From the NCBI GenBank assembly GCA_964416305.1, contig CAYQDM010000005.1, positions 43,797-107,796 on the forward strand: DNA of 64,000 nt. The letters run 5' to 3'. This stretch comes from an uncultured Acidaminobacter sp. Its GTDB lineage: Bacteria > Bacillota > Clostridia > Peptostreptococcales > Acidaminobacteraceae. The notes below the pieces were generated by a model. The model searched no databases. It saw only the letters and a program-made list of their open reading frames with translations, and was not told where the DNA came from. The position numbers were made by a program, and so were the translations under genes. Positions within the stretch are counted from its first letter, which is position 1. Each line of letters begins with the position of its first letter. Positions 38,815 to 39,618 of this stretch are shown here, one piece after another.

Positions 38815-39618
38815 TTAAACTAATGCAAGTAACGGATTTGCGAACATCAGGACAAGCGATATGATCAGCGCGTAGATCCCTGTTGTTTGTGCGACAGCTT
38901 GTCCCAGCAGCATGGTTCTGATGATGAGCGCCTTGTGCTTAGGACGTTTTCCAACCGCCTCTGCGCCCTTTCCGGCTGCATAGCCTTGTCCAATGCCCGG
39001 TCCAATGCCGGTGATCATGGAGATGCCTGCACCTATGGCAGAGGCGGTCAGAACATAGATACTGCCTTCCATAGTGACCATAGGATTGCCGTACATCAGG
39101 ATCAGCGCGATAACCAATGCGAGGATGCCGGATGTCTGTGCTACCGCTTGGCCCAGAAGCATGACCATGGTGATGTGCCGGTTGTTTCTCGGGCTTCTGC
39201 CCACTGCTTCAGCAGCTTTTCCGGCTGCCATGCCCTGACCAATTCCGGGGCCTATGCCCGCAATCATAGTCAGGCCTGCGCCTATGGCTGAGCCCATGAT
39301 AATGAACGTGTCACCCTGCATTGTGATAAATGGATTGCCAAACAACATAATCAAACCAATGACGAGTGCAAGGATACCGGACGTTTCAGCGACTGCAGCG
39401 CCCAGAAGCATGGTCATGGTGATCTGCTTGCTGTTTTTGAGGTTGTCCCCGACCGCTTCTGCGGCTTTTCCTGCCGCATAGCCCTGTCCGACACCCGGAC
39501 CAATGCCGGCGATCATAGCAAAGCCTATTCCAATTGCAGAGGCGCCTAAAATCAGCGCATTTCGCTCAAAAGTCAGCAGCCAGTTTATGAAATCATATAA
39601 CAGATTGGGTAGTTCCAC
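38815..39618 (-). CDS. atpE: Fo ATP synthase c subunit with three fused hairpins (6 predicted TM helices); the carboxylate is retained only in hairpin 1
   Basis: 267-aa uninterrupted ORF between atpB and the 86-aa atpE. It carries three copies of MI(A/T)GIGPG(V/I)GQG ... LLGxAVA(E/Q)T(S/T)GI ... (F/Y)(G/A)NP. The site residues are E78, Q161 and Q244. Confidence 0.85.
38818..39567 (-). repeat. Intragenic tandem triplication (~249-bp / 83-codon unit x3) encoding the c-subunit hairpins
   Basis: The plus-strand blocks CCCTGTCCGACACCCGGACCAATGCCGGCGATCAT, CCCTGACCAATTCCGGGGCCTATGCCCGCAATCAT and CCTTGTCCAATGCCCGGTCCAATGCCGGTGATCAT recur at 249-bp spacing. Confidence 0.85.

Follow-up and report, generated by a model that had tools for sequence, protein, structure and literature searches.

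The window analysed here is a stretch of 64,000 nucleotides from an uncultured Acidaminobacter sp. (Clostridia, Peptostreptococcales, Acidaminobacteraceae; GenBank assembly GCA_964416305.1, contig CAYQDM010000005.1, positions 43,797 to 107,796), and it holds a complete F1Fo ATP synthase operon in which a gene for the rotor subunit c has an unusual form. The gene, at 38815..39618 of the window on the minus strand, does not encode a one-hairpin subunit of about 8 kDa; its product is a single 27.1-kDa chain of three fused hairpins, with Glu at the ion-binding position in hairpin 1 alone. The locus raises the question of whether this protein (here called c1x3) is a genuine part of the rotor and, if so, how a ring with two adjacent hairpins lacking a carboxylate would affect the ion/ATP ratio, a basic bioenergetic parameter that limits life at low energy yields. 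Our results favour, with a probability of roughly three in four, a gene product that is real, expressed and part of the rotor of a Na+-coupled F1Fo ATP synthase, and that would be an expanded version of the c1 subunit known from Acetobacterium woodii. The features of the gene are as follows (the hairpin classes are explained below):

38815..39618, minus strand: atpE1-like c1x3 gene, an uninterrupted open reading frame (ORF) of 267 codons, three fused hairpins, 27.1 kDa (calculated)
39624..39629, minus strand: Shine-Dalgarno-like GAGGTG, 5 nucleotides upstream of the c1x3 start codon GTG
39559..39618, minus strand: N-terminal extension, residues 1-20, with a short helix at 6-14, conserved in c1-type proteins
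39331..39558, minus strand: hairpin 1, residues 21-96, 'first' class, with the full Na+ motif Q45...E78-T79-S80
39385..39387, minus strand: codon GAA for Glu78, the sole membrane-embedded carboxylate of c1x3
39310..39330, minus strand: linker 1, residues 97-103, FITMQGD
39082..39309, minus strand: hairpin 2, residues 104-179, scoring best against the 'first' class, with Q128, T162 and S163 retained
39136..39138, minus strand: codon CAG for Gln161, carboxylate position of hairpin 2
39061..39081, minus strand: linker 2, residues 180-186, MVTMEGS
38833..39060, minus strand: hairpin 3, residues 187-262, 'last' class QQQTTY, as hairpin 2 of A. woodii c1
38887..38889, minus strand: codon CAA for Gln244, carboxylate position of hairpin 3, invariant in 21 homologues

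The first-pass annotation of the window had described the gene as three tandem copies with a period of 83 residues (249 bp), and had predicted three matches to the PF00137 profile and six helices. Such an arrangement was indeed found. PF00137 (ATP-synt_C) matched c1x3 in three separate stretches (Pfam, total E 8e-43), and a hairpin hidden Markov model (HMM), prepared from the three copies together with the 86-residue c subunit of the adjoining gene (76 columns, gap-free alignment of all four), segmented the protein at residues 21-96, 104-179 and 187-262 with a copy period of exactly 83 residues and no gaps. The reading of the carboxylate positions (E78 GAA, Q161 CAG, Q244 CAA) was correct, and E78 is the only acidic residue placed within a hydrophobic helix, the other nine being located in the N-terminus, loops or linkers. 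In the N-terminal extension of c1-type proteins, N5 and F17 are nearly invariant. The assignment to the F-type family held both by the operon, which runs atpZ-I-B-E1-E2-F-H-A-G-D-C, and by the NCBIfam models: those for F0F1 subunit C gave three matches in c1x3 with their cut-offs passed (NF005521, 198 bits vs. a cut-off of 122), whereas the models for V-type subunit K reached 26-46 bits against cut-offs of 101-211.

An AlphaFold2 model of c1x3, computed with an alignment of 21 homologues, had a mean predicted local distance difference test score (pLDDT) of 91.8 and a predicted template modelling score (pTM) of 0.84. It consists of a short N-terminal helix (residues 6-14) and three helix-loop-helix hairpins, which together give the six long helices expected. 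In a Foldseek comparison with the PDB, the top match was the two-hairpin A. woodii c1 (4bem_J; E 8e-15), with a template modelling (TM) score of 0.81 on the target and 0.57 on the query; V-type c subunits followed with TM scores of 0.7-0.8 on the target, and none of the Foldseek matches was a PDB chain spanning all three hairpins. The same A. woodii chain was the best sequence match among solved structures (E 5e-62), so the precedent proposed at first pass proved to be the closest solved relative by sequence and fold alike.

A trivial explanation of such a gene would be a collapsed or fused assembly, or a sequencing error, that merged separate c genes for products of 8 or 18 kDa. Tandem paralogous c genes are known, as in atpE1, E2 and E3 of A. 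woodii (PMC7911925), and RefSeq itself holds a model of 177 residues at the c1x3 locus. Yet the identical protein occurs on 7 contigs; the six that were fetched represent six separate samples (ENA, Logan), show the same gene neighbours throughout and derive from more than one assembler. The 90%-identity cluster of c1x3 has 38 members, including proteins of Acidaminobacter sp. metagenome-assembled genomes (MAGs), and the same cluster contains a near-identical protein of 267 residues from the cultured type strain Acidaminobacter hydrogenoformans DSM 2784 (SCZ80596.1 / WP_092591723.1). The ORF is thus uninterrupted on all 7 contigs and in an isolate genome, with no sign of the split into separate genes considered at first pass. 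We detected no in-frame stop across it and no internal in-frame start codon with a Shine-Dalgarno-like motif upstream, codon 1 being the only start that has one; the earlier statement that the copies are separated by neither a stop nor a ribosome-binding site (RBS) therefore stands. The hairpins share pairwise 62-68% identity in protein, 64-68% in DNA and 43-45% at third codon positions, and for this reason the copies cannot collapse onto each other. Tandem Repeats Finder reported no DNA tandem repeat at 38400-39800, which, taken with the low third-position identity, indicates that the triplication is old and neither recent nor assembler-made. As the linkers are also conserved and free of stops across 21 homologues from many genera, we consider an artefact hardly credible.

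The shortened RefSeq models deserve a comment of their own. WP_408605872.1 (A. hydrogenoformans) and WP_414635025.1 (Acidaminobacter sp.), both of 177 residues and corresponding to 38815-39348 of the window (minus strand), begin at the internal Met90, in helix 2 of hairpin 1, and lose the sole hairpin that bears a Glu. The Met90 start was rejected, as no RBS precedes it and the part dropped is under strong purifying selection. The models are probably an annotation artefact arising from length expectations for subunit c, with the consequence that RefSeq carries c1x3 models without the only functional hairpin.

Loss of the catalytic residue in two of three repeats could alternatively mean that hairpins 2 and 3 are decayed relics of a duplication, or that the gene as a whole is being lost, and that the changes from Glu to Gln are neutral damage. 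The substitution pattern argues strongly against this. Between one strain and the window, the c1x3 genes differ at 64 nucleotides, all of them synonymous; another strain shows 151 differences, about 14 of which are non-synonymous (ratio of non-synonymous to synonymous rates, dN/dS, 0.014), and a relative with 87% protein identity gives a dN/dS of 0.038. Whole-gene values thus range from about 0.014 to 0.04, and those of hairpins 2 and 3, the supposedly decaying parts, from 0.006 to 0.058. For hairpin 1, dS is saturated, with 4-9 non-synonymous vs. 47-49 synonymous differences. The N-terminal 20 residues have a dN/dS of 0.13-0.23, which indicates that this region is coding as well. Across the 21 aligned three-hairpin homologues, which share 63-97% identity with c1x3, 85 columns are invariant; they include Q244 and, in each of the three hairpins, the GxGxGxG-type motif. 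The outcome that would have contradicted the first-pass reading, Glu in hairpins 2 and 3, did not occur: hairpin 3 has Gln in 21/21 homologues, and hairpin 2 has Gln in the 15 that are of the window's type. Since the Glu-Gln-Gln pattern moreover recurs across many genera, decay of the paralogue is extremely improbable, and the selection analysis has effectively refuted it already.

How the three hairpins relate to one another became apparent from a scan of GTDB genomes (one genome per species), in which the 79 best loci, nearly all from Clostridia and none from Acidaminobacter, were retained; species counts are lower bounds. The c genes of these loci were segmented with the hairpin HMM, and six key positions were read in each hairpin. 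Results showed three classes: first hairpins of multi-hairpin proteins read Q-A-E-T-S-(L/F), last hairpins Q-Q-Q-T-T-Y, and separate single-hairpin c subunits Q-A-E-T-T-Y. A. woodii c1 is exactly a first plus a last hairpin. Class profiles were prepared from 44 first and 44 last hairpins (taken from 44 two-hairpin proteins) and from 80 single hairpins. Hairpin 1 of c1x3 (QAETSL) scored best against the 'first' profile (132 bits) and hairpin 3 (QQQTTY) against the 'last' profile (144 bits). Hairpin 2 gave 123.3 bits with 'first', 113.0 with 'single' and 112.7 with 'last'. Because of this lead of 10 bits for the 'first' profile, hairpin 2 seems to have arisen by duplication of hairpin 1, with its Glu lost later. 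Other species have proteins of Glu-Glu-Gln type, in which a first-class middle hairpin still has Glu; these look like the step in between. The path suggested by these sequences would lead from a two-hairpin c1, with one Glu and one Gln hairpin, through internal duplication of the first hairpin to a change from Glu to Gln in the middle copy. A neighbour-joining tree of hairpins (19 sequences after gap filtering) gave tied identities: for hairpin 2 of c1x3, the value was 75-76% whether it was compared with first hairpins or with the middle hairpins found in other genera. By architecture, there are at least two routes of expansion, internal hairpin duplication (first-first-last) and tandem fusion of two c1 units (first-last-first-last).

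The class comparison also bears on a second substitution noted at first pass, an Ala to Gln change four residues before the carboxylate position in hairpins 2 and 3 (Q157 and Q240). The change itself is real, but it is not tied to loss of the ion site. The upstream Gln is invariant in last hairpins, while middle hairpins have S, A, V, D, G or Q there, and it is present in the Na+-binding c subunits of Ilyobacter tartaricus and Fusobacterium nucleatum, which are functional; its presence therefore does not mark a lost site.

On the minus strand, the gene belongs to a complete F1Fo operon with the order atpZ-I-B-[c1]-[c2]-F-H-A-G-D-C, where it stands directly upstream of a gene for a separate single-hairpin subunit (here c2). 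The other members of the operon and its candidate promoter are:

41232..41261, minus strand: sigma-70-like promoter candidate TTGACT-18-TATAAT upstream of atpZ, proposed from a consensus match only (11/12)
40771..41010, minus strand: atpZ-like gene (ATPase_gene1; PF09527)
40358..40774, minus strand: atpI (PF03899)
39654..40355, minus strand: atpB, a subunit of 233 residues (PF00119, E 2e-56)
38504..38764, minus strand: atpE2, encoding c2, 86 residues, 8.6 kDa, a single hairpin with the Na+ motif Q...ETT..Y
37922..38455, minus strand: atpF, b subunit (PF00430)
37392..37934, minus strand: atpH, delta/OSCP subunit (PF00213)
35827..37374, minus strand: atpA, alpha subunit, in the F1Fo operon
34917..35795, minus strand: atpG, gamma subunit, named from operon position and ORF translation
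33485..34891, minus strand: atpD, beta subunit, named from operon position and ORF translation
33041..33451, minus strand: atpC, epsilon subunit (PF02823 and PF00401)

The 50-base spacer between the c1x3 and c2 genes contains no listed promoter-like match and no terminator-like site. The c2 protein shares about 85% identity with A. woodii c2, which binds Na+, and is closely similar to the c subunits of I. tartaricus and F. nucleatum. Its gene begins with ATG behind a strong RBS (GGAGGA), while that of c1x3 begins with GTG behind GAGGTG. Codon choice is also distinct: GGT makes up 67% of Gly codons in c2, vs. 17% in c1x3 and 12-33% in the other atp genes, and GCA makes up 71% of Ala codons in c2 vs. 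41% in c1x3, with GCC absent from c2. In this respect c2 differs from every other gene of the window that was checked, which may be a sign of very high expression or of a distinct evolutionary history. Together, the codon bias, the ATG start and the GGAGGA RBS suggest that c2 is translated much more than c1x3, as a ring composed of many c2 and few c1 subunits would need, and c2 is probably the major ring component.

From these data we infer the following arrangement of the rotor. One 27-kDa chain of c1x3 would fold into three hairpins and fill three adjacent positions of the c-ring, with the 8.6-kDa c2, encoded directly downstream, filling the remaining ones. Within c1x3, Na+ would be bound only by hairpin 1, through E78 in the full Q...E-T-S motif. 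Hairpins 2 and 3 retain the GxGxGxG packing motif, the helix-1 Gln, and the helix-2 Thr and Ser/Thr, with Gln in place of Glu. The ion of a Na+ ring is bound between neighbouring hairpins, one of them providing Glu65 and Gln32 and the next Ser66 (PMC2359735), so the ligands retained in hairpins 2 and 3 would keep the neighbouring sites complete. These hairpins would accordingly pack normally and lend ligands to their neighbours, with a neutral Gln occupying the place of the Glu and no ion carried. A rotor of this kind should move fewer Na+ per turn than a homomeric ring of equal size. The A. woodii ring comprises nine one-hairpin c subunits and one c1, and translocates 3.3 Na+ per ATP (PMC9171764; PMC5662883). 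By the same calculation, a ring of 11 hairpins with one c1x3 would transport 9 Na+ per 3 ATP, i.e., a ratio of 3.0, where the A. woodii ring has 3.33 and a homomeric c11 ring would have 3.67. In such a ring, the two adjacent Gln residues would leave about 100 degrees between neighbouring Glu sites.

Comparable subunits are not limited to A. woodii, as Clostridium aceticum has a similar c1 and Na+-dependent ATPase activity (PMC7911925). Both c1 proteins (the former being AtpE1, PDB 4BEM chain J) share with c1x3 the slot between atpB and an 8-kDa c gene, and A. woodii c1 resembles c1x3 further in its fused F-type hairpins, in a first hairpin with Q...ET and a last one with the Glu to Gln change (QQQTTY), and in having a c2 partner with a Na+ motif. 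It differs in size, with two hairpins, four helices and 18 kDa vs. three, six and 27 kDa, and in what c1x3 has in addition, namely a first-class middle hairpin with Gln, which leaves two neighbouring positions null and a single site for six helices. Acidaminobacter lives by amino-acid fermentation and depends on hydrogen-consuming partners. This lifestyle fits the rationale put forward in the literature for blank hairpins, which are regarded as a way for energy-limited anaerobes to adapt to phosphorylation potentials that are very low (PMC9171764; PMC7911925).

Several points weigh against a working synthase rotor of this type. In a genetically fused c10 ring of Bacillus PS3, a single E56Q substitution abolishes ATP synthesis (PMC8809890), and on that basis a rotor with two null sites side by side might be expected to stall; one natural null site is tolerated in A. 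woodii, but two in a row, which the a-subunit Arg would have to pass, go beyond that precedent. Both the c1 copy number per ring and the size of the ring are taken over from A. woodii as assumptions, and Na+ coupling is read from the motif alone. The cytoplasmic loops of the three hairpins are DNL, RSP and KRP, in place of the canonical RQP of c2, and contacts with gamma and epsilon may differ as a result. Finally, the window contains a V/A-type ATPase operon as well, so that either of the two enzymes may be the one that makes ATP.

Some of these observations would suit a protein that is real and yet has its place outside a working synthase ring, as an assembly nucleus or template, a regulator of ring size, or the component of a low-stoichiometry ring, c1-only or c1-rich, that would make the enzyme an ATP-driven Na+ pump in the manner of V-ATPases. 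A low number of sites per turn helps a pump to work against steep gradients, as is classically argued for V-type c subunits (PMC9171764), and an amino-acid fermenter with a BKACE gene of lysine-fermentation type may need a Na+ pump equally. The deviation of the F1-facing loops from RQP, the conserved N-terminal helix unique to c1-type proteins and the loss of synthesis caused by one Glu to Gln change in the PS3 c10 ring agree with such a role, too. On the other hand, in the only homologue studied, c1 is a stoichiometric ring member, and ATP is made at low driving force (PMC9171764). The null hairpins of c1x3 keep Gln25, Thr59 and Ser/Thr60 (hairpin numbering), which are just the ligands lent to adjacent sites, and this fits a place within a working ring. 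With about 12 hairpins, a ring of c1 alone would offer about 4 sites and a ratio of 1.3 Na+/ATP, below what a phosphorylation potential of about 30 kJ/mol would need at a normal sodium-motive force, although such a ring might still serve as a pump. On balance, we regard a place outside the synthase ring as unlikely. A further variant keeps the architecture as described and replaces Na+ by H+ as the coupling ion. Prediction of the coupling ion from motifs can fail, but c2 and hairpin 1 carry the full Q...E-T-(T/S) set of Na+ ligands, and the close relatives of c2 in A. woodii, I. tartaricus and F. nucleatum point the same way; H+ coupling thus appears less probable still.

Returning to the Na+-coupled rotor, we found that c1x3 belongs to a broader series of proteins. 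A protein search with c1x3 gave 1760 matches at E <= 1e-10, of which the best 120 were segmented with the HMM. These 120 cluster by length at about 182, 265, 350 and 440-458 residues. Written as the residues at successive carboxylate positions, the two-hairpin proteins among them are EQ (45 proteins), those with three hairpins EQQ (18), EEQ (8) or ETQ (2), those with four EQQQ (14) or EQEQ (15), and those with five EQQQQ (12), with other patterns in 6. The architecture of the window protein, first-class with Glu, first-class with Gln and last-class with Gln, was the most frequent one, being found in 16/74 class-assigned proteins with at least three hairpins. Three-hairpin forms are found in, among others, Crassaminicella indica, Alkalibacter rhizosphaerae, Alkalibacter mobilis, Clostridiaceae bacterium 35-E11 and a Marinisporobacter MAG. 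Within the 79 best loci of the genome scan, a c gene with two to five hairpins was followed by at least one single-hairpin c gene in 50/50 loci that continue downstream; among the rest, 4 had a contig end or a cut gene, and 25 had single-hairpin c genes only. The genes for the four-hairpin protein P0003 and the five-hairpin protein P0036 are likewise followed by a single-hairpin c gene and then by atpF and atpH, with atpB upstream in the case of P0003. An exhaustive search among 1.84 billion cluster representatives returned c proteins of 3 to 7 hairpins at 27-48% identity. Two of these distant relatives were checked, a three-hairpin EQQ and a four-hairpin EQQQ protein, and both adjoin a single-hairpin c gene and atpF; the one locus that was long enough has the full F-type set from atpZ to gamma.

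Single-Glu c1 proteins with four or five hairpins (EQQQ, EQQQQ) are encoded in the same operon slot. They include P0032-P0043 (452-458 residues), P0003 and those encoded at L017 3937-5310, in L006 and at L094 4001-5053; one of them is from a Bacillota MAG of sheep rectum. With one such subunit per ring of 11 hairpins, the ratio would fall to 2.67 (four hairpins) or 2.33 (five hairpins) Na+/ATP, and in the latter case 4/11 positions, more than a third, would be without carboxylates. Whether c1x3 represents a natural F-type rotor with about a quarter of the ring lacking carboxylates, within an undescribed series of two-, three-, four- and five-hairpin single-Glu forms that tunes Na+/ATP, is a matter on which we see the odds as even. 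If so, the series would tune the ratio stepwise through 3.33, 3.0, 2.67 and 2.33 in energy-limited anaerobes, and an F-type motor would be able to turn past several consecutive null sites. Such a series would amount to a naturally occurring test of how low the ion/ATP ratio can go and of the route from F-type to V-type rotors. Two adjacent blanks in c1x3, and three or four in its relatives, suggest that bacteria may tune the ion/ATP ratio much further than known, with rotors that may run past a long carboxylate-free stretch where the engineered PS3 enzymes suggest that they should not. Direct testing is feasible, as the gene is present in a cultured type strain, A. hydrogenoformans DSM 2784, and the A. 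woodii operon can be expressed in a heterologous system.

Several variants were observed in the course of these searches. An uncultured Acetobacterium sp. MAG (OZ223194.1; L018 3979-5040), from the genus of A. woodii, has a four-hairpin Glu-Gln-Glu-Gln c1, which is a head-to-tail fusion of two c1 units and is followed by two single-hairpin c genes. Two multi-hairpin c genes per locus, either a three- and a two-hairpin gene or two two-hairpin genes in tandem, stand before the single-hairpin c gene in L008 (3865-4800 and 6560-7500; Marinisporobacter MAG), L022 and L051. In a divergent lineage (L090 4485-5000 and L091 1958-2473; Logan SRR7968363 and SRR8068353), a gene of 171 residues with a CheW domain (PF01584) is located within the F1Fo operon, between atpB and a three-hairpin c of 237 residues (Glu-Gln-Gln, with a second Glu in helix 1). 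Very long c-like proteins were also retrieved, P0150 (968 residues), P0216 (1042), P0187 (524) and P0143 (434), with 5-7 hairpins each by HMM, a probable undercount. Nearly all of their detected hairpins have Glu, Gln occurring only in the first one found in P0216, and they recall the 13-hairpin protein of Methanopyrus kandleri.

As to novelty, the first-pass annotation had not recognised a triplicated F-type c subunit as described. For the literature this was upheld: no description of an F-type c with at least three hairpins was found in the accessible full texts (a mention in a 2015 review is possible), where the F-type multi-hairpin c subunits are the two-hairpin c1 proteins of A. woodii and C. 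aceticum, with one blank each. The protein is not rare, as forms with 3-5 hairpins are common in public genomes of Clostridia, where the records bear the generic name 'ATP synthase F0 subunit C'. The novelty of c1x3 is therefore one of description and not of sequence availability; as an expanded c1, it extends a known principle and is not a new kind of system. The sequence data establish the structure of the gene, its conservation and operon context, and the fold, residue pattern and hairpin classes of its product, whereas assembly with c2, c1 copies per ring, ring size, Na+ coupling and the ion/ATP value are inferential.

Reduced site numbers as such are known from archaeal A-type c subunits with 2, 3 or 13 hairpins and from V-type c (PMC2359735; PMC9171764). 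The triplicated c (K) subunit of archaeal A1AO enzymes, e.g., of Methanocaldococcus jannaschii, resembles c1x3 in having three fused hairpins and fewer carboxylates than hairpins (PMC2359735; PMC9171764). It differs in that c1x3 is encoded in a bacterial F-type operon, has one of three carboxylates and is adjoined by a separate single-hairpin c gene. The M. jannaschii subunit, as Ruppert and colleagues are said to have reported in 1999, keeps two of its three carboxylates and forms a ring alone. V-type c/K subunits (NtpK of Enterococcus hirae, 2BL2; yeast and mammalian Vo c) likewise have fused hairpins, here duplicated, and one ion site per subunit, and their fold resembles any two of the three c1x3 hairpins (TM score 0.7-0.8 on the target), but they share about 20% identity, have four helices and belong to V-type enzymes; the V/A-type K of the window itself is different as well. 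Engineered c multimers of Bacillus PS3 FoF1 (Mitome et al. 2004; PMC8809890) are comparable in that covalently linked F-type hairpins form a functional ring. Those are artificial constructs with Gly-Ser-Ala-Gly linkers, in which one E56Q in c10 abolishes synthesis, whereas c1x3 is natural and has two such substitutions under strong selection.

The second rotary ATPase is encoded at 56125-63965 on the minus strand, 17 kb from the F-type operon:

63426-63965, minus strand: V/A-type AC39/d-like subunit, cut by the window end
61434-63419, minus strand: V/A-type subunit I
60913-61338, minus strand: V/A-type subunit K, 141 residues, with one PF00137 hairpin at residues 78-137
60571-60876, minus strand: V/A-type subunit F
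59912-60553, minus strand: V/A-type subunit E
58153-59952, minus strand: V/A-type subunit A
56761-58140, minus strand: V/A-type subunit B
56125-56748, minus strand: V/A-type subunit D

The K subunit has a hydrophobic N-terminal part without a family match; at its site, GLAEGIAIYG, the Q...ET Na+ motif is missing. Two rotary ATPases are therefore encoded in this genome, and they probably differ in coupling ion.

A gene set related to corrinoids and methyl transfer occupies 84-6216 and 7288-8553 of the window, and a pair of adjoining metabolic genes is found at 54757-56058:

84-1253, minus strand: URO-D family protein
1989-3686, minus strand: sigma-54 activator with a PAS domain
3805-6216, minus strand: RACo-type reductive activator of corrinoid enzymes
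7288-8553, minus strand: PocR/AraC regulator
54757-55572, minus strand: BKACE family beta-keto acid cleavage enzyme (E 2e-114)
55585-56058, minus strand: hot-dog fold protein of the thioesterase superfamily, adjoining the BKACE gene

The corrinoid gene set hints at methyl-group metabolism in this Acidaminobacter, and the pair formed by the BKACE and thioesterase genes looks like lysine-fermentation genes, which would fit an amino-acid fermenter.

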